Source of the DNA: Lentisphaerota bacterium
GTDB taxonomy: Bacteria > Verrucomicrobiota > Kiritimatiellia > UBA8416 > VGWJ01
DNA: 64,000 nucleotides
Assembly: GCA_016873635.1 (NCBI GenBank)
Contig: VGWJ01000006.1
Location: forward strand, 3,102-67,101
Direction of reading: 5' to 3'
This document shows, piece after piece, positions 1 through 24,715 of the stretch (positions are counted from its first letter, which is position 1; each line of letters begins with the position of its first letter). The notes beneath the pieces are model-generated. The model had not been told where the DNA came from. It searched no databases and worked only from the letters and a program-made list of their open reading frames with translations. Position numbers and translations under genes: made by a program.

Positions 1-3000
1 CGCTCCTGCTCGTCCTCGTGCAGGATGCGCCGCTGATCGAGCTCCTGCGTGGCGCGCTCCTGCTCTTCGCTCAGGGACAGCTGTTCCTGGCGGAGTTGCT
101 CGACCTGCAGGGCGAGCTCGTCCTCGCGCTGGCGGTTGCGGGCGCGCTCCTCTTCGGCCATGGATCTCTGCTGCTCGAGCTCCTGGGTGGCTTCCTCCAG
201 GCTCAGGGCGACGCCGCGGTGCTCGTCCTGCAGCTGGCTGAGGCGCGCGGCGAAGTCGGCCCGCTCCTGTTCGCCGCGCTGGCGCGTTTCGGAGGCCATG
301 GCCCGCTCCTGATCGAATTCGCGCCTGAGTTGATCGTAGCGGTCCTGCGCGTCCCGCAGGGCCTTCTCGTACGCGGCGAGCTTTTCCTCCGCGGTCTGTC
401 GCCGCTGCGCTTCGTCCTCGACCTGCGTGCGCGCGGAGGTGACCGCGTCTTCCCGCTGGGCGATGCGCTCGCGCTCCTCTTCGATCTGGCGGCGGGCCTG
501 CGCCAGCTCCTGCTCGCGCTTCCGGCGCAGCTTCTGCTCTTCGTCGAACAGCTTTCTCTGCCGGCCCAGTTCGTCGGCCTGCTGCTGCGCGCGCGTGCGT
601 TCGGTCTGGAAAATCCTGCGGTCTTCGTCGACCTTGACGTTGAGCGCGCGGTACCGCTCCTGGGTCTGTTCCATGGCCTTCTGGAAATCATCCTCGCGCC
701 GGGTGAGCTCCTGCTGCGCCGTTTCGTAGAGCTTCCGCAGCTCGGCCAGCTCCTGGTCCTTCTGCCGGAGGAGGGCCTCGGACGCCTCGACGCGCTCGGC
801 GCGCTGCGCCAGGTTCTCCTGCAGCGCCCGGTAGTCGGCTTGCGCCTGCGCGATGCGGTTCTCGGCTTCCGCCTGGCGCTCGGCCAGTTGCGCGCGCAGC
901 GCCTCGGCGGCCTCGGTCTGGCGGGCGGCCTGCTGCCGTGCGCCGTCGATCTCGGCCTGCAGCGACTGGAGCTTCTGCTCCGCCTGCTCGAGCCGATGCC
1001 GCGCCAGTCGCTCCTGCTCCGTCGACGTCTTGTCGAGTTCGGCGCTGAGCGTCTTCTGCTCGTCCAGCTCCGCGCGCGCCCTCCCGAGCTGCGCCTGCAT
1101 GTCCTCGCGCTCGCGCTGCAGGCGCGCGACGTGTTCGTTGAGCGCCTTTTCCCTGGTCTGGACGTTTTCCTCGGCCGAGGCATACAGCTCGGTCAGACGG
1201 GTCAGCTCGCGGCGTTCCTGGTCGAGGGCGAGGTGCAGTTCCTGCACCGTCTTGCGGCCCTCTTCAAGCTGCTCTTCGAGATAGGTCTTCTCGTTGCGCA
1301 GGCCCTCGATCTCGTCGCTCAGCGAGCTTTCGCGCTGGCGGCTGTCCCACTCGATCTGGTCCAGCCTGGCCGTGGTCTCGGCGCAGCGGCGCTGCAGCTC
1401 GTCGATGCGCGACTCGGCGGCGGCGTCGCGCGCGCGTCCTTCCTGGGCGGCCTGTTCGGCGGCGGCGCGCTGCTCGGCGAGATCCTCCTCGCGGCGCCGC
1501 AGCTCTTCGCGCGCGTCGTCCCGCAGCTTGGTCATTTCCTCGAGCTCGAGCTCCCTGTCGCCCAGGCGGCGCGTAAGCTCGCGGCACTCGTCCTGGACCT
1601 GGTCGAGGCGCTGCGCCAGCTCGTTGTCGGTCTTCTGCGCCCGCTCCTTCAGTTCGGCGACCACCGCGCGCTCCTGCCCCAGCTCCCTTTCCAGGGCGGC
1701 GGCGCGCGCGGCGCGCTGGTCGCGATCGGCGGCGAGCGCGCGCAGGCGCGCGCCGAGCTCGCCCTCCTTCTCGCTGCCGATGGCCATGGCGTCGTCGCGT
1801 TCGCGGCGCGCCAGATCCAGCTCGGCCTCCAGTTCGCCGATCTTCTCCAGCGCGGCCTTGCGGCGCTCGTAGAGCTTGCGGTGTTCCTCGAAATCGGTGC
1901 CGACAAGGCCTTGCAGGTCGAGTATGCGGTCCTGGAACGCCTTTTCGCGTTCGGCGAACGTCCGGCGCAGGCCCTCGAAAGCCTCGCGCTCGCGATCGAG
2001 ATCGGCGCCCAGGCGTTCGACCTCCTCGGCAAGCACGTGCTTGATGTGCTCGGTATGCGTCAGGCGCTCGGCTTCCAGCTCGCTGCTGCGCTGGAGGATG
2101 ACGTCGTAGCGGGCGCGCTCATCGCGGAGGTCGGCGCGCAAACCGTCCAGGGCCTTTGCCGCGCGCTGGCCCTGCGCCTGCAGGCCGTCAAGACGTCCGG
2201 CCAGGTCGCCCCGGCGCTCCTCGTCGCGTTTCGCGTCTGCGTCGGAAGCGGCGCGCAGGGCGGCCGCATGCGCCCTCGCCCCCGCGACTTCCTCAAGGGC
2301 CCGGCCGGCCGCCTGGCGCATGTCGCGGATGACCTCGCGCAGTCCCTGCTCCCGGGCGTGGCTTTCGTTGCGTATGCGCGCGAACTCGGTGATGCGCCGC
2401 TGGAGATCCTCTTCGGCGGCGCGCAGGCGCGCCGCGGCTTCGGTGGCCTTGCGCTCAAGCTCGGACGCCTGCCGCTTCATGTCGCCGACGCGAGTCTCGG
2501 TCTCCCGCGCCTGCGACTCCGTCCGGGCTCTCTCGGCTTCAAGCTCCGCGCGCGCGCGGTTGAGCTCTTCGGTGGCGCCGGCCAGCGCGGCCTTGAGCTG
2601 TTCGATGCGGGCGCTGAGGTCGCGGGCCTGCGCTTCGGCGTCGGCTCTCTCGGCCTCGAGCCGGCCGCGCGTCGCGCTCAGGTCTTCTACCGTCCCGGCC
2701 AGCGCGCGGTCCAGCTCCTCGATTCGCGCGTTGAGGTCGCGGGCCTGCGCTTCGGCGCGGTTCTTTTCGGTTTCGAGCTGCGCGCGGGCGTCCTCGCGTT
2801 CCTTTGTGGCGTCGGCGAGCGCGGCGTTGAGCTGTTCGATGCGGGCGTTGAGGTCGCGGGCCTGCGCTTCGGCGCGGTTCTTTTCGTCCTCGATCTGCTT
2901 CCTGATGCCGCTCAGATCGTCCTTGCTGCCGGCGAGCGCGCGGTTGAGCTGTTCGATCTGCGCGGCCCGGGCCGTGCTCTGGCGCTCGGCTTCGGTCAGC

Positions 3001-4013
3001 TTGGACGCCGTTTCCTGCGCCGAGCGTTCGAGTTCCGCGATCCGGTCGCGCATGGAGGTGAAGCGCGACTCCGTCTCCACCGCCATTCGCTCGCGGCCGG
3101 AGCCCATCGTCTCGATCTCGCGGCGCGCGGCAAGGAGGGCCTGCGTGGCCTGGTCGGCGTTCCGCCGGAGGGTATCGATTTCGCGGCGCAGCTCGTTCTC
3201 GCGTGTCCGGCTGCGTTCCTGCGCCTGCAAGCCGCTGGCCCGCTCGTCGCGCAGGGCTTTGCGGGCGCGGTCCAGGCGCGCGGCCGCGTCGGCCGCGCGG
3301 GACGCGAGGTCGTCGGCGGCGCGGCTCAGTCCGGCGAGTCGCTCGCCGTCGCCGCGTTTCGCGGCCGCCTGCTGCGCGCGTTCGGCCGCCAGGCGCTCGC
3401 GCGTCTGATCCAGCTCCTTCTCCATGGCGGCGGCGCCGGAGGAGATATCCTGGATGCGGCGCTGCAGGTCATGCTCGCGCGTGCGGCTCTCGGTCTGCAG
3501 CGCGTCAAGCCGTCGCGCGCGTTCCTGGAGGTCCTTCTCCGTCTCGCGCAGGCGGCCGGCCGCCTCGGCGGCCTGTCTTTCCAGCTCCGTCATCCTTTCG
3601 AGATTCTTCTTCAGCGCGGCCATGTCCTCGCCGGCGGGCGCCACGCCGAGAATGACCGCCTTCCGGGCGCCGACGGTGGTTTGCTCGCCGGTTTCCGCGT
3701 TGCGCAGGGGCGCGTCTTCGGTGATGGTCCCTTCCACCACGAGGTCGGCCAGGGCGCGGATGTTAAGCGGGCCGTACGGGGTTCCGTCGGCCAGGGTGAC
3801 CGTCCAGACCATGCGGAGTTCCCTGAGGTTTTCGACGGGAACCCACTTGCGATTGTCGGCGGAAACCTCGTTTCCGGGCGCAATGCGGCCCTGCTCGGCC
3901 CAGGCGATGAGGTCTTTGAGAGGGGCGGGTCCGAACACGGAACCGTCGTCGATCTTGAGGTACCACTGGTCGGCCGGGCCGGCCTTGTCTGTCGGTTTCA
4001 CTGGTTCGGGCAT
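1..4013 (-). CDS. Large coiled-coil protein, C-terminus beyond window. N-terminus has two tandem GYF-like/DUF4339 domains (WYLKIDDGSVFGPAPLKDLIAWAEQGRI... and MVWTVTLADGTPYGPLNIRALADLV...), followed by >1200 aa of E/R/A/Q/L-rich heptad-like coiled coil.
   Basis: I translated the reverse complement myself. It is open from the ATG at 4013..4011 (MPEPVKPTDKAGPADQWYLK...) through position 1 with no stop, and the composition is a typical coiled coil. The same-register + ORF 18..4073 is >30% Leu with almost no E/K, so it is the antisense shadow. The gene is absent from the ORF track, presumably because it has no stop inside the window. Confidence 0.7.
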   Translation of the reverse strand, partial: MPEPVKPTDKAGPADQWYLKIDDGSVFGPAPLKDLIAWAEQGRIAPGNEVSADNRKWVPVENLRELRMVWTVTLADGTPYGPLNIRALADLVVEGTITEDAPLRNAETGEQTTVGARKAVILGVAPAGEDMAALKKNLERMTELERQAAEAAGRLRETEKDLQERARRLDALQTESRTREHDLQRRIQDISSGAAAMEKELDQTRERLAAERAQQAAAKRGDGERLAGLSRAADDLASRAADAAARLDRARKALRDERASGLQAQERSRTRENELRREIDTLRRNADQATQALLAARREIETMGSGRERMAVETESRFTSMRDRIAELERSAQETASKLTEAERQSTARAAQIEQLNRALAGSKDDLSGIRKQIEDEKNRAEAQARDLNARIEQLNAALADATKEREDARAQLETEKNRAEAQARDLNARIEELDRALAGTVEDLSATRGRLEAERADAEAQARDLSARIEQLKAALAGATEELNRARAELEAERARTESQARETETRVGDMKRQASELERKATEAAARLRAAEEDLQRRITEFARIRNESHAREQGLREVIRDMRQAAGRALEEVAGARAHAAALRAASDADAKRDEERRGDLAGRLDGLQAQGQRAAKALDGLRADLRDERARYDVILQRSSELEAERLTHTEHIKHVLAEEVERLGADLDREREAFEGLRRTFAEREKAFQDRILDLQGLVGTDFEEHRKLYERRKAALEKIGELEAELDLARRERDDAMAIGSEKEGELGARLRALAADRDQRAARAAALERELGQERAVVAELKERAQKTDNELAQRLDQVQDECRELTRRLGDRELELEEMTKLRDDAREELRRREEDLAEQRAAAEQAAQEGRARDAAAESRIDELQRRCAETTARLDQIEWDSRQRESSLSDEIEGLRNEKTYLEEQLEEGRKTVQELHLALDQERRELTRLTELYASAEENVQTREKALNEHVARLQREREDMQAQLGRARAELDEQKTLSAELDKTSTEQERLARHRLEQAEQKLQSLQAEIDGARQQAARQTEAAEALRAQLAERQAEAENRIAQAQADYRALQENLAQRAERVEASEALLRQKDQELAELRKLYETAQQELTRREDDFQKAMEQTQERYRALNVKVDEDRRIFQTERTRAQQQADELGRQRKLFDEEQKLRRKREQELAQARRQIEEERERIAQREDAVTSARTQVEDEAQRRQTAEEKLAAYEKALRDAQDRYDQLRREFDQERAMASETRQRGEQERADFAARLSQLQDEHRGVALSLEEATQELEQQRSMAEEERARNRQREDELALQVEQLRQEQLSLSEEQERATQELDQRRILHEDEQE
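2581..2970 (-). repeat. Intragenic direct tandem repeats, 3-4 copies with a ~117-120 bp period, inside the coiled-coil gene. They encode repeated ~39-aa units (...KNRAEAQARDLNARIEQLNAALA...).
   Basis: Near-identical DNA blocks containing gagctgttcgatgcgggcg(c/t)tgaggtcgcgggcctgcgcttcggcg at ~2581, ~2698, ~2812 and a partial one at ~2929. Confidence 0.6.
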
Positions 4014-4097
4014 GCCACACCTCGTTGTTGCGAGCGTCTGCGCCACGGCGCCGGGGGCGGAGGGCCGTCATGATTCCGCGCCACTCAAGTACACGGT

Positions 4098-8861: not shown

Positions 8862-9032
8862 GAGGCGGCGCCTTCGGCCCGGTCAGGTTTTGCCTGCCGA
8901 TTCTCAGGCGCGTCCGCCCGCGCCCGGCTGCCGTCGCGCCGAAGCGGCGCCATGGCGCGGCGCGAAGGCGGAAGGTCGCGGGCCACCTCGCTTCTTCCCC
9001 TGCGAAACCGGCGGGCCGCCGGGTTCCGTAGT

Positions 9033-9202
9033 GGGTCAGTTACGCGGTGGAAACACGCCGGCAGGGCGCGGCGTGCCGCCTTCGCCCGGAGGCTCCGGCG
9101 CGCCAAGCCGGCCGCGCCGCGGCGGACCGGGCTTGCCCGCCATAGCCCGCAGGGCGACGGCGGGACGGTCCGCCCTACCTCGCCTCCCTGCATGACTGAC
9201 CG
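9033..9202. mobile_element. MITE-like GC-rich repeat, copy 1 (~170 bp), with imperfect terminal inverted repeats (GGTCAGTTACGCGGTG ... CTGCATGACTGACC). Carries a ~35-bp insertion relative to copy 2.
   Basis: Matches 17621..17757 at >90% identity over ~135 bp. Lies in the intergenic region just upstream of tRNA-Leu. The ends are inverted complements and there are internal near-palindromes (CCGGAGGCTCCGG). Confidence 0.5.
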
Positions 9203-9274
9203 GTTGCCGGGTTCCTTTCATTCCCGTTGACCGTCTGCCGGGCATGCACTATGCTTTCTTCGGATGGTGTAACC

Positions 9275-9359
9275 GTGCACCCGTGGTGAAACTGGTATAC
9301 ACGCAAGGTTCAGGTCCTTGTGGCCGCTAAGGCCGTGGGGGTTCGAATCCCTCCGGGTG
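9275..9359 (+). tRNA. tRNA-Leu, anticodon CAG. Class II tRNA with a long variable arm, 85 nt, CCA not encoded.
   Basis: Hand-folded: acceptor GCACCCG/CGGGTGC; 3-bp D-stem GTG/CAC with a GG-containing loop; anticodon stem CAAGG/CCTTG with loop TTCAGGT (U33, CAG, G37); variable arm GGCC-loop-GGCC; T-arm GGGGG-TTCGAAT-CCCTC. Confidence 0.8.
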
Positions 9360-9431
9360 CACCCGCCTCCGCCCCGGCGGCGGCTGTGGCGGACGGATCC
9401 GGCGCGTTGCCCGAAGCGGACGAGGTGTCTG

Positions 9432-10376
9432 ATGGCTTTCGGCGAAGGCAAGATCTGGTATGACGGCCGTTTCGTGGACTGGGCTGACGCCACGTGCCAC
9501 GTGATGAGCCACGCCCTGCATTACGGCTCGTCGGTCTTCGAGGGCATCCGCTGCTACGCCCGGCCGGCGGGGCCGGCCGTATTCCGGCTGGACGACCATC
9601 TCCGGCGCCTGTACGACTCGGCCAAGATCTACCGCATGGAAATCCCGTTCGGCCTGGCGCAGCTGCGCCAGGCCGTCCTGGACACCGTGCGCGTCAACGG
9701 CCTGTCTTCCTGCTACATCCGGCCGCTGGCGTTCCGCGGCATGAAGGCCATGGGGGTCAACCCCCTGACCTGTCCGGTGAAGTGCGTCATCGCGGCCTGG
9801 GACTGGGGGAAGTACCTGGGCGAGGATTCCATGGTCGACGGCGTGTCGGTGCGCGTTTCGTCCTGGCGGCGCGCGGCGCCCGACACGTTCCCGGCGCTGG
9901 CCAAGGCCGGCGGGAACTACCTCAATTCGCAGCTGATCAAGATCGAGGCCACTCAGGACGGGTTCGACGAGGGCATCGCCCTGGACCACTACGGCTTTGT
10001 CTCGGAGGGCTCGGGCGAAAACATCTTCATGGTCCGCAACGGCGTGATATACACCCCGCCGTCCAGTTCCTCGATCCTGCCGGGCGTGACGCGGCACTGC
10101 GTGTTCACGCTGGCCCGCGAGATGGGCGTGCGCATCCACCAGCAGGTGATCCCGCGCGAGGCGCTGTATATCGCCGATGAGGTTTTCTTCTCGGGCACGG
10201 CCGCGGAGATCACGCCGGTGACGCGCATCGACAACATCGCCATCGGCGACGGCAGGCGCGGCCCGGTCACGGAGCGGATCCAGGGCGCGTTCTTCGAGAT
10301 CGTCGAGGGCGGCGCGGAAGACCGCCACAACTGGTTTACGCCCGTGGGCGCCGCCGCCCCGGGCGGCAAGGACTGA
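9432..10376 (+). CDS. ilvE: Branched-chain amino acid aminotransferase.
   Basis: Product MAFGEGKIWYDGRFVDW...; class IV aminotransferase motifs (ALHYGSSVFEGIRCY, SGTAAEITPV). Start is the internal ATG at 9432 of ORF 9318..10376. Confidence 0.9.
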   Translation: MAFGEGKIWYDGRFVDWADATCHVMSHALHYGSSVFEGIRCYARPAGPAVFRLDDHLRRLYDSAKIYRMEIPFGLAQLRQAVLDTVRVNGLSSCYIRPLAFRGMKAMGVNPLTCPVKCVIAAWDWGKYLGEDSMVDGVSVRVSSWRRAAPDTFPALAKAGGNYLNSQLIKIEATQDGFDEGIALDHYGFVSEGSGENIFMVRNGVIYTPPSSSSILPGVTRHCVFTLAREMGVRIHQQVIPREALYIADEVFFSGTAAEITPVTRIDNIAIGDGRRGPVTERIQGAFFEIVEGGAEDRHNWFTPVGAAAPGGKD

Positions 10377-10381
10377 CGGCC

Positions 10382-10888
10382 ATGCTGTGCGACGTGTGCA
10401 AGAAAAAGCCGGCCACGGTGCATTTCAAGGAGGCCTGCAACGGCCAGATCCGCGAGATGCACGTGTGCGAGGAGTGCGCCGTGCAGAGCGGGCTGGACGC
10501 GGGCGCGCCCGTTTCGCTGGCCGACCTGCTGTTCGGCGCGGCCGCCAAGCCGCCGCCGGAAAGCCTGCCGGACAAGTCGTGCCCCAACTGCCACATGCGG
10601 CAGCGCGACTTCTCCAAGACGTCGCGCCTGGGCTGCGCGCGGTGCTACGACGCGTTCCGCGAGGAAATGCGGCCGATGCTGGACGGCATGCAGAAAGGCC
10701 GGCAGCACGTCGGCAAGGTGCCGGCGCGGGTGCGCTGTGCGCAAAGCGCCGCGGTGCTGCGCCGGCGCCTGGACACGGCGGTGGCGGCGGAGAAATTCGA
10801 GGAGGCCGCGCACCTGCGCGACCGGATTGCGGAAAGCGAAGCGCGCGCGCGGCCGGCGCGCGGGCGAAACACGGCAGGCGTGGACTGA
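10382..10888 (+). CDS. mcsA: McsA-like activator of protein arginine kinase (N-terminal zinc-finger Cys pairs plus C-terminal UVR-like motif).
   Basis: CDVCKKK...CEEC...CPNC...CARC cysteine pairs and a ...AAEKFEEAAHLRDRI UVR motif. Sits immediately upstream of mcsB. Confidence 0.8.
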   Translation: MLCDVCKKKPATVHFKEACNGQIREMHVCEECAVQSGLDAGAPVSLADLLFGAAAKPPPESLPDKSCPNCHMRQRDFSKTSRLGCARCYDAFREEMRPMLDGMQKGRQHVGKVPARVRCAQSAAVLRRRLDTAVAAEKFEEAAHLRDRIAESEARARPARGRNTAGVD

Positions 10889-10889
10889 G

Positions 10890-11951
10890 ATGCTGGTTGA
10901 CGATCTGGTGCGAAACCCCGGCTCCTGGCTGTCGCACGGCCGGGATACCGGCGTTGTGGTCAGCAGCCGCGCGCGGCTGGCGCGGAACATCCGGGACGTC
11001 GCGTTTCCCGACTGGGCCGGCGAGGAGGAGCGGCTGCGGGTCTGGAGCGAAATGCGCGGGGTGCTGGCCGGGATGCCCGGCCTGGCCGACGCGCTGATCC
11101 TGGACATGGGCGAACTGGCTCCCGTGGACCGGGCCGTGCTGCGCGAGCGGCACCTGGCCAGCCTGGACCTCACGGAAAAGGGCGCCGGCAGCGGACTCGT
11201 GGTCAGCCAGAGCGAGCGCATCGCCGTGATGGTCAACGAGGAGGACCACCTCCGGCTGCAGGCCATCACGCCGGGCATGGAGCTGCTGGAGATGTGGCGC
11301 GAGCTGGACGCCCTGGACACGGCGCTGGAGGAGCGCGTGGAATACGCCTACCATCCGGAGCTGGGCTACCTGACGGCCTGCCCCACGAACGTGGGCACGG
11401 GCCTGCGGGGCAGCGTCATGCTGCACCTGGCGGGGCTGGCCCTGATGAACGAAGTCGAAGCCGTGATCAAGGGCCTCAACCGCATGGGCTACGAGGTCCG
11501 CGGGCTGTTGGGCGAAGGCTCCGAAGCTTCGGGCAACATGTACCAGATATCCAACCGCGTCACGCTGGGACAGAACGAAGAGGACACCGTGCGCGGCATC
11601 ATCGCCATGGCGGAAGAAGTCGTGCGGCACGAGACCAACGCGCGCCTGCGCCTGATGGAGGGCCGGCGCGTGAACGTGCTGGATCACGTCGGGCGGGCCT
11701 ACGGCATTCTCTCGCACGCGCGCGTGCTGTCGTCGGGCGAGGCCGTGCACCTGCTCTCCGCCCTGCGCCTGGGCGTGGATTTCGGCCTCGTGGAGAACCT
11801 GACTCCCGCGTCGATCAACGACGCCATGCTGCTGACCCAGCCGGGCCACCTGCAGAAAACCAGCAAGCGCAACCTGAGCCCGGGCGAAAGGGACGAACTC
11901 CGGGCCGGCATGATCAAGAAACACCTGAAGGGCGTGTGCATCGCGCGCTGA
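10890..11951 (+). CDS. mcsB: Protein arginine kinase McsB (ATP:guanido phosphotransferase family).
   Basis: Conserved ...CPTNVGTGLRGSVMLHLAGL... phosphagen-kinase active-site region. ATG at 10890 lies one nt after the mcsA stop. Confidence 0.9.
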   Translation: MLVDDLVRNPGSWLSHGRDTGVVVSSRARLARNIRDVAFPDWAGEEERLRVWSEMRGVLAGMPGLADALILDMGELAPVDRAVLRERHLASLDLTEKGAGSGLVVSQSERIAVMVNEEDHLRLQAITPGMELLEMWRELDALDTALEERVEYAYHPELGYLTACPTNVGTGLRGSVMLHLAGLALMNEVEAVIKGLNRMGYEVRGLLGEGSEASGNMYQISNRVTLGQNEEDTVRGIIAMAEEVVRHETNARLRLMEGRRVNVLDHVGRAYGILSHARVLSSGEAVHLLSALRLGVDFGLVENLTPASINDAMLLTQPGHLQKTSKRNLSPGERDELRAGMIKKHLKGVCIAR

Positions 11952-11958
11952 GGAAAAC

Positions 11959-14478
<2,520 letters not shown>

Positions 14479-15674: not shown

Positions 15675-17024
15675 ATGGCCTCTCTGCTGATAGTGGACGA
15701 CGACCAGTCGATCCAGACGCAGATGAAATGGTCGCTGGGCGGCGACTATTCCGTCGAACTGGCCGGAGACCGCCCCGGCGCGGTCGCGGCCGCCGCGGGC
15801 AGCGGGGCCGCGGTGATCCTGCTTGACCTGGGCCTGCCGCCGCGTCCCGATGAGCCCGAAGAAGGCATCGCCGCGATGCGCGAACTGCTGGAGGCCAACC
15901 CCCACCGCAAGATCATCGTCATCACCGGCCAGGGGGAAAAGGGCAACGCGCTGCGGGCCGTGGCCGAAGGCGCCTACGATTTCCTCAACAAGCCCATCGA
16001 CATGGATGAGTTGAAAATCATTCTCAAGCGGGCCTTCCACCTGGTGCGGCTGGAAGCGGAATACCGCGAGCTGCAGGGCAAGCTTGCGGCCGACGGCTTT
16101 GAGGGCATGCTGGGCACGAGCCCGCAGATGCAGGCCGTTTTCACGGCCGTTCGCAAGGTTGCGCTGGCCGATGCCCCGGTATTGATCCTGGGCGAGAGCG
16201 GCACGGGCAAGGAGATGGTGGCGCAAGCCATTCACCGCCGCAGCCGGCGGCAGGCGGGCCCTTTCGCGGCCATCAACTGCAGCGCAATTCCCGAAAACCT
16301 CCTGGAGAGCGAGCTCTTCGGGCACGAAAAGGGGGCCTTCACCGGCGCCCACGCCCAGCGGCCGGGCCGCATGGAGGCCGCCGCGGGAGGGACCCTGTTT
16401 CTGGATGAGATCGGGGAAGTCCCGCTCGCCCTGCAGGTCAAGCTGCTGCGCTTCCTGCAGGAGAAGAGCATCCAGCGCGTCGGCGGCCGCCGCCCGATCG
16501 AGATCGACGCGCGCGTGCTCGCGGCCACCAACGTCGACCTGAAACAGGCCATGGCCGCGGAGCGTTTCAGGGAAGACCTCTACTACCGGCTGGCGGTCGT
16601 GACCGTCAGCCTGCCGCCCCTGCGCGAGCGAACGGGGGACATCCCCGTCCTGGCCAAGGTCATCCTGCGCCGCTTTGCGCTGGAGAACAACCGCAAGCTG
16701 TCCGGCTTCAACGCGGAAGCGCTGCGCGTGATGTCGGCCTACGCCTGGCCCGGCAACGTGCGCGAAATGGAGAACCGCATACGCCGGGCGGCCATCATGG
16801 CGGAAGGCCGGCACGTCACGCCCGAGGACCTGGAACTCGATCCGGCCGCGGTGGGCCTCAAGATTACCACCTTGAAAGAAGCCCGCGAAAAGGTCGAGCG
16901 CGAGGCGATCAGGAGAGCCATGGCCCGCCACCGCAACAACCTCAGCCGCGCCGCCGAGGAGCTCGACGTCAGCCGGCCCACCCTGTACGAGCTGATGGAC
17001 AAGCTCGGCATCAGGCGGGAGTGA
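15675..17024 (+). CDS. Sigma54-dependent response regulator of the PrsR/PEP-CTERM-box type (REC + AAA+ sigma54 activator + C-terminal HTH).
   Basis: The receiver has the PrsR hallmark LLDLGLPPRPDEPEEG. GAFTG loop and [15 protein letters not shown] present. C-terminal Fis-type HTH. Confidence 0.85.
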   Translation: MASLLIVDDDQSIQTQMKWSLGGDYSVELAGDRPGAVAAAAGSGAAVILLDLGLPPRPDEPEEGIAAMRELLEANPHRKIIVITGQGEKGNALRAVAEGAYDFLNKPIDMDELKIILKRAFHLVRLEAEYRELQGKLAADGFEGMLGTSPQMQAVFTAVRKVALADAPVLILGESGTGKEMVAQAIHRRSRRQAGPFAAINCSAIPENLLESELFGHEKGAFTGAHAQRPGRMEAAAGGTLFLDEIGEVPLALQVKLLRFLQEKSIQRVGGRRPIEIDARVLAATNVDLKQAMAAERFREDLYYRLAVVTVSLPPLRERTGDIPVLAKVILRRFALENNRKLSGFNAEALRVMSAYAWPGNVREMENRIRRAAIMAEGRHVTPEDLELDPAAVGLKITTLKEAREKVEREAIRRAMARHRNNLSRAAEELDVSRPTLYELMDKLGIRRE

Positions 17025-17528: not shown

Positions 17529-17620
17529 GTGCTCTGCCTCCGCCCGGGGCGCGTGCCGCCGCCCCCCGGTATACGCGCCGGCGTGCGGCCGGCGCGGCCG
17601 CACACCGGGATGGATGTAAG

Positions 17621-17757
17621 GGGTCAGTTACGCGGTGGAGACACGCCGGTAGGGCGCGGCGTGCCGCCTTCGCCCGGAGGCTCCGGCGCGCCAAGCCCGC
17701 CGCGCCGCGGCGGACCGGGACGGCCCGCCCTACCTCGCCTCACCGCGTGACTGACGG
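17621..17757. mobile_element. MITE-like GC-rich repeat, copy 2 (~137 bp), with terminal inverted repeats GGTCAGTTACGCGGTG ... CACCGCGTGACTGACG.
   Basis: Near-identical to 9033..9202. Sits in the divergent promoter region between the NDT-like gene and the NT5C gene. Confidence 0.5.
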
Positions 17758-17849
17758 GTTTCGTATGGATGCATTCTAGTATGGACGCCGCCCGTCTCAA
17801 GTGCAGAATGGCGTCCAAGGCAAGGTGCCGTCCGAAAAGGAGCTGCGCG

Positions 17850-23287: not shown

Positions 23288-24715
23288 TCATCGCGGAGGG
23301 GCGCGGAAGTCCTCCTTGCGCAGCCCGTAGCGTCTCATCTTGTTGAAGAGCGAGCGCGGCTCCAGTCCCGCGCGCCGGGCGGTTTCGCCTACGCGTCCGC
23401 CGGTGGCGGCGAGCAGCCTGGCAAGGTATGCGCGCTCGAAGCGCTCGACGGCGGTCTCGCGGATCTCCTTCAGCGGCCGTTCGATCCAGTCGTCGGGGAA
23501 GTCCTCGCCGCCGGGCAAGCGCGGCGCGGGCGCGCCTTCACGGCCGCCGGCGATTTCCGCCGGCAGGTCCGCGAGGCCGATCTGGTCTTCCTCGCACAGG
23601 AGCACGGCGCGTTCCAGAACGTTGATCAATTCGCGCACGTTGCCCGGCCAGGCGTATTCGCAGAGGGCGTCCATGGCTTCGGGCGCGATGCGCCTGGCGC
23701 CGCGTCCGATCCGCGCGAAAAGCCCTTCCATGATGGACGACGCCAGCGCGGGAATATCCCCGCTGCGCTCGCGCAGGGGGGGGACCTCGATGGCGACGAC
23801 TCCCAGGCGGTAGTAAAGGTCGCCGCGAAAACGCTTGTGCTCGACTTCTTCGCGGATATCCCGGTGCGTGGCGGCGATGACGCGCACGTCGACGGGTATC
23901 TTTTTTTCGCTGCCCACGGGCGCGACTTCGTAGTCCTGCAGCACGTGCAGCAGCTTGACCTGCAGGTGAAAGGGCATCTCGCCGATCTCGTCCAGGAAGA
24001 GCGTGCCGCCGTGGGCCAGCTCGAAGCATCCGCGCTGGGCGCGCGTGGCTCCGGTAAAAGCCCCTTTCTCGTGTCCGAAGAGCTGGCTTTCCAGGAGGTT
24101 CTCGGGAATGGCGCCGCAGTTCACGGAGATGAAAGGGCCGTCGGAGCGGCGGCCGTCGTTGTGAATGGCGCGCGCCAGCCGCTCCTTGCCCACGCCCGTC
24201 TCGCCGCTGATCAACAGCGGGGTGTCGCTGTCGGCCACGCGCGTCACGGTGCGCATGAAGCGCTGCATGGCGGGGCTGTCCGAAACGAAGTCGCCGAGGC
24301 CGGGGCGCGGCGTGGTGCGCCGTACGGCGACGGTCTTGCTCAGCAGTTCGCGGCGCTTCCTGGTGATCAGGCGGATGGCTTCCCAGATCACGTCGTCGGG
24401 CACGCCCGTGTAGATCGCCGCCTCGGCGCCCGCGGCGCGCAGGATGGCGAGGTCCTCGGCGTCGTCGTCGCCGGAAAGCACGATCAGGTCCGGGGCGTTG
24501 GCGGAGGACGTGAGGCGGCGGACGTTCTCCTCGACGGGTTCGGGAATCACGCGGTCGCAGACAATGAGGACGTCGGACAAAACCTGCCCGACGGTATCCC
24601 ACGCGGCCTCCCTGGCGACCGGAGCGCGCACGAATGCGTCCACGTCGCGCAGCAGGGCCAGCACGCGGGAGCGGAGCTTGATCTGGTCAACCAGCAGCAG
24701 AATGCGAAGCTGCAT
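23288..24715 (-). CDS. Sigma54-dependent Fis-family transcriptional activator (divergent receiver-like N-domain + AAA+ + HTH).
   Basis: GETGVGKE Walker [22 protein letters not shown], and a C-terminal HTH. ATG at 24715 ([11 protein letters not shown]). Confidence 0.9.

Follow-up and report, generated by a model that had tools for sequence, protein, structure and literature searches.

[quoted passage not shown] These elements are short, non-coding, multi-copy, intergenic, and hairpin-prone; they have terminal inverted repeats (TIRs), are flanked by target-site duplications (TSDs) of fixed length, and share their ends with an autonomous insertion sequence (IS). The repeat family analyzed here has all of these properties. 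In contrast to the known families, it has IS66-type ends with an 8-bp duplication, and its interior is modular, with two hairpin cassettes of ~33 nt.

The inverted repeats of IS66-family elements (especially the single-transposase, ISBst12-group-like members, e.g., ISDge4) start with 5'-GTAA or 5'-GTAG, and their insertion duplicates 8 bp of the target (PMC12898284, PMC3281130, PMC12888890). Eight-bp direct repeats are given for ISPpa5a and ISPpa7 (PMC3281130, Table 2), the 8-bp duplication is reported for the family (PMC12898284, PMC3281130), and published inverted repeats are GTAAGCGTCC... and GTAACCGTCC..., i.e., GTAAGCG... and GTAACCG... (PMC12888890). Members of the IS66 family typically have GTAA-type ends and duplicate 8 bp. 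Our repeats share both features, and their putative partner IS encodes a DDE_Tnp_IS66/NF033517 transposase; unlike an IS, the repeats themselves carry no transposase. We found no IS66-derived MITE described in the searchable literature (ISfinder lay outside that search) and claim no priority; MITEs with IS66-type ends seem to be rarely described.

The window, i.e., the whole 64-kb stretch of DNA analyzed here (69% GC), is part of the 115-kb contig Ga0194125_10000118 of JGI metagenome 3300020222. It contains two copies of the repeat, which lie among the following features.

9020..9027, unstranded: left TSD of copy 1, CGGGTTCC, with the same 8-mer at 9208-9215
9028..9207, + strand: copy 1 of the putative MITE, 180 nt, long form (core, module 1, and module 2), aligned with 11 other subfamily-A copies; nhmmer E=2.9e-41
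9028..9051, + strand: left TIR of copy 1, GTAGTGGGTCAGTTACGCGGTGGA, 23/24 nt identical to the IS ends in contigs L024 and L074, GTAATGGGTCAGTTACGCGGTGGA
9075..9107, + strand: module 1 of copy 1, 33 nt, GCCGCCTTCGCCCGGAGGCTCCGGCGCGCCAAG, containing the palindrome CCGGAGGCTCCGG; in 6/12 aligned copies
9128..9160, + strand: module 2 of copy 1, 33-34 nt, CGGGCTTGCCCGCCATAGCCCGCAGGGCGACGG; in 6/12 aligned copies
9184..9207, + strand: right TIR of copy 1, degenerate, reverse complement GCAACCGGTCAGTCATGCAGGGAG; other copies end ...CTGACCGGTTAC
9208..9215, unstranded: right TSD of copy 1, CGGGTTCC, 8/8 match to the left one
9227..9255, + strand: promoter-like site outside the element, TTGACC, 17-nt spacer, TATGCT; its first hexamer starts 20 nt past the end of copy 1
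9276..9364, + strand: tRNA-Leu(CAG), downstream of copy 1 (ARAGORN; Rfam RF00005, 52 bits)
17608..17615, unstranded: left TSD of copy 2, GGATGGAT, 7/8 match to 17763-17770
17616..17762, + strand: copy 2 of the putative MITE, 147 nt, medium form (core and module 1); nhmmer E=1.4e-41
17616..17639, + strand: left TIR of copy 2, GTAAGGGGTCAGTTACGCGGTGGA, 24/24 nt identical to end B of the L074 IS
17663..17695, + strand: module 1 of copy 2
17739..17762, + strand: right TIR of copy 2, reverse complement GAAACCCGTCAGTCACGCGGTGAG
17763..17770, unstranded: right TSD of copy 2, GTATGGAT, 7/8 match to the left one

Both copies are on the + strand, and their similarity breaks off exactly at the TIR termini. 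The first 118 nt are 92% identical and the last 31-45 nt ~90%, in agreement with the earlier note, which had reported a repeat occurring twice at >90% identity. The window has exactly two occurrences of the 18-nt left end and exactly two of a 27-nt core motif (~0 expected), and an nhmmer profile built from 12 family members found no third copy there. The note had placed the copies at 9033-9202 and 17621-17757; the place was right, but the extent was too short, since comparison with 14 further copies moved the left terminus outward by 6 nt and the right one by 5 nt. The inverted ends that it described are real: the left-end 16-mer GGTCAGTTACGCGGTG, compared with the reverse complement of the right end, agrees with it at 14/16 positions for copy 2 and at 12/16 for copy 1. 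So is the internal palindrome, CCGGAGGCTCCGG, and the internal insertion of ~35 bp in copy 1 is the 33-nt block missing from copy 2, named module 2 above. Read from the flanks of the metagenome copies, the left terminus of the family is 5'-GTA(A/G)(T/G)G-GGTCAGTTACGCGGTGGA... and the right terminus ...(C/T)(A/G)T(A/G)ACTGAC(C/G)GGTTAC-3', and GTA...TAC termini are common to both ends across copies.

The repeat is multi-copy. The 18-nt left end was scanned against JGI metagenome contigs at exact-18-mer sensitivity and matched 38 loci, comprising ~22 real elements and ~16 chance matches inside unrelated genes. All real elements were from the Lake Tanganyika samples Ga0194111/113/125, which also contain the window's contig, and they lay on many different contigs. 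After removal of duplicates, at least 16 full copies (12 of subfamily A and 4 of subfamily B) and 2 truncated ones remained, giving at least 18 distinct loci with unrelated flanks, a count that refers to the population or metagenome and not to a closed genome. The full copies are 111-181 nt long, and every one of the 16 is intergenic. They vary by 33/34-nt indels and have no coding capacity, as had been proposed. The subfamily B copies (140-141 nt; L009:267-406, L013:1805-1945, L020:2915-3054 (-), and L028:8977-9116 (-)) have the same IS66-type termini and perfect 8-bp TSDs. Their interior, a 28-nt perfect inverted repeat around GGACATGTACGTGCGCCTGGACTGCGTTT, is unrelated to that of subfamily A, which indicates that the same transposase ends captured at least two interiors.

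Searched with the 18-mer, 185,579 species-representative genomes (GTDB representatives) yielded no MITE: 27 loci matched, all but one of them by chance in coding sequence. The remaining one, on contig L069 of a Lake Tanganyika MAG, is a real match to an IS end. No viral contig matched the 18-mer. Within these collections, at exact-18-mer sensitivity, the two subfamilies are confined to this lake population. The MITE loci have 67-72% GC, and their tetranucleotide correlation with the window is 0.85-0.94, versus 0.63-0.86 for unrelated high-GC controls; this composition fits, but does not prove, an origin in one genome or closely related genomes. Look-ups of the genes flanking copy 1 returned only MITE-bearing alleles or contigs broken inside the MITE, and hence no empty-site allele in the population, and exact-protein look-ups for both genes flanking copy 2 returned no record. 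Logan short-read contigs from several runs (L005-L007 at their start, L079-L082 at their end) reach 27 nt into copy 1 from either side and then break off, the behavior expected when a repeat exceeds the assembly k-mer.

TSDs, which the earlier note had proposed to look for, are present at most copies and are 8 bp long. The 8-nt flanks are identical at all positions in 10 of the 16 full copies and match at 7/8 in three more. If the right end of the L021 copy is read 2 nt shorter, a fourth copy joins the latter group, and 14 of 16 match at 7/8 or better. TSDs are missing in 3/16 full copies, or in 2/16 with L021 read in this way. The clear cases are L029:120-266 (= L038) and L041:10433-10613, the right end of which is degenerate; recombination between copies, or a decayed end in L041, could explain them. 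The chance of an 8/8 match is P=1.05e-4, as estimated by drawing pairs of 8-mers at random from the window with the spacing kept, and 10 such matches in 16 copies correspond to a binomial P of ~1e-36. The duplicated 8-mers vary from site to site and are therefore a property of the target, not of the element.

The repeat shares its ends with an IS of ~1.97 kb. Over its first 24-25 nt, GTA[A/G][T/G]GGGTCAGTTACGCGGTGGA, the left end agrees with the inverted repeats of this IS, and the left TIR of the MITE is identical at 23-24 of 24 nt to the IS in L024, L074, and L069. L024, a 2256-nt contig from the window's own sample, contains this terminus twice, in inverted orientation and 1973 bp apart. 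The termini enclose a 106-aa DUF6788 ORF and a 509-aa ORF, which is an "IS66 family transposase" by NCBIfam (NF033517; 229.5 bits, cutoff 180) and DDE_Tnp_IS66 by Pfam (PF03050; 1.3e-36, 126.9 bits versus a cutoff of 23.1). A transposase 94% identical to that of L024 (P0001) was found on longer contigs. In two of these, L074 and L077, the IS is complete: it measures 1969 bp, its TIR has 28 bp (GTAAKGGGTCAGTTACGCGGTGGAGCGA), and it is flanked by perfect TSDs of 8 bp, CGGCGCGG and GGTTGGCC. Contigs L075 and L076 look like chimeric assemblies that join the flanks of different IS copies.

The IS ends start with GTAATG, GTAAGG, or GTAACC, and the MITE copies with GTAAGG, GTAATG, or GTAGTG. The right ends of the MITE have diverged from the IS TIR, with ~13 to 20 of 24 positions matching, so that current mobility is uncertain; they begin with GTAACC, a start shared with one end of a related IS on contig L035. 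Canonical IS66 has tnpA and tnpB ORFs, which are missing from the partner IS; there, only the 106-aa DUF6788 ORF precedes the transposase, an organization found in the single-transposase ISBst12-like group. The partner transposase is ~26% identical to annotated plasmid-borne IS66 transposases. This identity and the missing tnpA and tnpB characterize the IS as a distant, single-transposase-type member of IS66. We also observed that the DUF6788 ORF (L024:1784-2104 (-); L074:165-485), which stands in place of tnpA/tnpB, overlaps the start of the transposase gene by ~38 nt.

The IS clade is widespread, with thousands of transposase relatives in metagenomes, nearly all of them on ~2-kb contigs, which is typical of a multi-copy IS. 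No full-length IS is present in the 64-kb window or on any MITE-bearing contig. The IS contigs are likewise ~2 kb long and unlinked to the host, their GC content is 61% versus 69% for the host, and one was binned in an "Alphaproteobacteria" MAG. The IS may reside in the same genome as the MITEs, to judge only from the common sample and the similar composition.

These results make it very probable that both repeats in the window are copies of a non-autonomous MITE that bears the terminal inverted repeats of an IS66-family IS and was most likely mobilized in trans by the ~1.97-kb IS of the same samples. The family is multi-copy, with 8-bp TSDs and ends that match an IS with an IS66-family transposase, and it has no Rfam match; the MITE reading of the earlier note thus held. 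In the mechanism that we propose, a full-length IS of ~1.97 kb with the same ends would supply the IS66-type DDE transposase in trans. The transposase would bind the 24-28-bp termini (5'-GTAAKGGGTCAGTTACGCGGTGGA) and join them, and the MITE would be inserted at staggered cuts 8 bp apart, the repair of which would leave the 8-bp direct repeats. The interior is free of genes and consists of a GC-rich hairpin core plus two optional hairpin modules of ~33 nt, and the copies that remain all lie between genes. The repeat family itself, its TIR identity to the IS, the 8-bp duplications, the missing coding capacity, and the sites between genes were observed directly; we infer that this particular IS shares a genome with the MITE and that its transposase mobilizes it, and any effect on neighboring genes would likewise be an inference.

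The interior of subfamily A is modular. In the alignment of 12 copies, the core of 111-114 nt runs from the left TIR through a subterminal GGTAGGGCG motif and a small hairpin in the center to the complementary CGCCCTACC and then the right TIR. Modules 1 and 2 are additions to this core, and the placement of module 2 is ambiguous by up to 4 nt owing to the flanking CGGG repeat. Four forms were found.

Core only, 111-114 nt: 5 copies
Core and module 1, 147 nt: copy 2 of the window
Core and module 2, 147 nt: L029, the sole copy with module 2 but without module 1
Core and both modules, 179-181 nt: copy 1 of the window and 4 others

All four combinations of presence and absence therefore exist, and L029 indicates that the modules vary independently. 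Short direct repeats border each module (GCCGCC/CCCGCC and CGGG/CGGG), and gain or loss between copies probably occurred by slippage or recombination at such CCGCC-like and CGGG repeats. Hairpins resembling module 1 (…GCCGCCTTCGCCCGGCGGCTACGGCGCGCCAAGCC…) also stand alone, without IS66-type termini, at L022:23-84 and L046:9255-9300, the latter ~225 nt upstream of a tRNA-Val gene. The interior of the MITE may have come from a small palindromic repeat that exists independently in this genome.

The copies and the features around them are arranged in the following order: dnaE (-), a gene for a 276-aa protein without a Pfam match (+), copy 1, the promoter-like site, tRNA-Leu, an ilvE-like aminotransferase gene, mcsA, mcsB, clpC, a deacetylase gene, a sigma-54 response regulator gene, a nucleoside deoxyribosyltransferase-like gene (-), copy 2, and an NT5C/HAD nucleotidase gene (+). 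Copy 2 thus sits between the last two genes, which are divergent. The best named relatives of the window's DnaE are from Lentisphaerae, Kiritimatiellae, and Verrucomicrobiota MAGs (63-67% identity), indicating that the host is an uncultured member of the PVC group. A relative, L084 (DnaE 68% identical, 62% GC), has kept tRNA-Leu(CAG)-ilvE-mcsA-mcsB-clpC, with 136 nt and no MITE upstream of the tRNA. This fits a lineage-specific insertion in the window, the relative being too distant to provide a true empty site. The conservation of this arrangement (window 9276-14478; L084:973-6192) also indicates that the McsA/McsB arginine-kinase-ClpC module, familiar mainly from Firmicutes, is present in this PVC-group lineage.

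The earlier note had placed copy 1 next to the tRNA gene and called the site a classic insertion hotspot. Copy 1 does lie upstream of tRNA-Leu(CAG), ending 68 nt before it. The hotspot does not apply, since the insertion is upstream of the tRNA promoter, has an 8-bp duplication, and is of the DDE type, whereas the targets of tyrosine-integrase islands are the 3' ends of tRNA genes. Nevertheless, three of the 16 full copies are followed, 53-82 nt downstream, by a co-oriented tRNA gene, with the following gaps.

Window 9207-9276: copy 1 to tRNA-Leu-CAG
L022:4067-4121: MITE to tRNA-Met-CAT
L015:10115-10198 (= L033): MITE to tRNA-Thr-TGT

This excess is suggestive of a bias toward sites upstream of tRNA genes, with a binomial P of ~1e-3 that rests on an assumed genome in which ~50 of ~4000 intergenic regions precede a tRNA. 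At three loci, a -35-like hexamer (TTGACC or TTGACA) begins exactly 20 nt from a MITE end, i.e., 12 nt beyond the 8-bp duplication.

Window 9227: hexamer beside copy 1
L041:14288: hexamer at the same spacing
L009, left flank of the copy at 267: hexamer at the same spacing

The exact spacing could reflect a target preference or a coincidence. Promoter enrichment beside the right ends, seen by eye as TTGAC...TAnnnT, was rejected: under a strict sigma-70 rule, the 16 copies have 2 promoters on the right, 2 on the left, and 1 pointing inward. Beside four copies, a crude GC3-based caller called no gene over ~1.5 kb, and Rfam found no rRNA or other RNA there; these gaps are taken as missed genes. 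One may speculate that the IS66-type transposase prefers sites just upstream of strong promoters, notably those of tRNA genes, and that the hairpins were kept as insulators or terminators against read-through, making the elements exapted, promoter-proximal MITEs. We regard this as unlikely.

It is also improbable that the repeats act as a regulatory hairpin (a terminator, an insulator, or a stabilizer of mRNA) or as a structured non-coding RNA and are kept for their fold, so that the family reflects function and not transposition. In the fold check that the earlier note had proposed, both copies do form long hairpins that beat shuffled controls. Copy 1 folds into a single long hairpin of -107.5 kcal/mol (z=-3.8) and copy 2 into one of -90 kcal/mol (z=-5.0). 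Either strand of both copies folds better than the controls (z -3.7 to -5.0), and the two strands fold equally well, as expected for any DNA palindrome. In the RNAalifold analysis of the 12-copy subfamily-A alignment, three of 37 pairs have changed on both sides and still pair, but the covariation term, at +0.33 kcal/mol, is unfavorable. The two polymorphic TIR pairs are both G-U wobbles on the + strand, a point for an RNA that, with only two sites, is within chance. By coarse gene calls, ~12/16 copies point with their right end toward the start of a co-oriented gene or tRNA, which would also suit a regulatory role.

Other results argue against such an RNA. Rfam gave no match on either copy at gathering thresholds or at E<=1, and tRNA-Leu(CAG) is the sole match in the whole window. 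Neither copy has a called terminator-like site. Copies can do without an entire 33-nt module, and subfamily B combines the same termini with an unrelated interior. A function in the fold would also leave the 8-bp TSDs and the IS-identical ends unexplained. The structured intergenic RNA that had been offered as an option alongside the MITE thus found no support. We also considered the covariation as evidence for a functional RNA and rejected it as too weak; hairpin DNA would act alike. The fold looks like a property of a palindromic transposon, not of a conserved RNA. The three double-sided pairs may reflect some selection on the fold or repair of it; a role of the fold would be at most secondary and exapted.

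It is very unlikely that the elements are extragenic palindromes of the REP/BIME type, which would be spread by a RAYT (HUH/Y1) and not by a DDE transposase. REPs are ~20-40 nt long, make no target-site duplications, and are linked to a RAYT gene. Like them, our elements are GC-rich intergenic palindromes, and many copies start with GTAG, which we take to resemble the conserved tetranucleotide of REPs; module 2 contains GGGCTTGCCCGC, presumably similar to Pseudomonas REP cores, and the lone hairpins in L022 and L046 described above would be REP-like in having no TIRs. In contrast to REPs, which are shorter and lack long TIRs, the elements here are 111-181 nt long, their termini match an IS66-family IS over 24-25 nt, and their 8-bp TSDs already contradict this explanation; no RAYT gene came up in the general annotation of the window. 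That a GC-rich intergenic stretch was duplicated by chance or segmentally, or that a tRNA-targeting integrase-type island left an attachment-site remnant, as the mere two copies in the window and the tRNA gene beside one of them might suggest, can be dismissed: at least 18 dispersed loci with unrelated flanks and the TSDs refute it, the similarity ends at the TIR termini, the element lies 68 nt from the 5' end of the tRNA without overlapping its 3' end, and the neighbors are the 276-aa protein gene and ilvE-mcsA-mcsB-clpC, with no integrase nearby.

Two other repeats were observed in the window. Three tandem copies of a 117-nt unit (70-76% identical) at 2503-2893 lie in a large - strand ORF (1-4067) that runs off the window start; they look like a repetitive protein domain. 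The segments 16561-16769 and 23627-23835 are similar in inverted orientation, at 71% over 107 nt and 93% over 30 nt. The first segment lies within the sigma-54 response regulator gene (15675-17024); the second, ~7 kb away, probably belongs to a paralogous sigma-54 activator gene read from the other strand.

The IS66-derived MITE that we favor has practical consequences. Spurious ORFs across the elements should not be called genes, and the repeats explain the breaks in short-read assemblies at these sites. Otherwise, the family is an ordinary selfish repeat, and only its modular hairpins and its bias toward sites upstream of tRNA genes may be worth more work. Transposition in the IS66 family is poorly characterized; a substrate of 111-181 nt with defined ends would therefore be convenient for binding and transposition assays. 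Our analysis provides a clean sequence-level case, from an uncultured PVC-group bacterium of high GC content, of a MITE family on IS66-family ends with a candidate for its autonomous partner.
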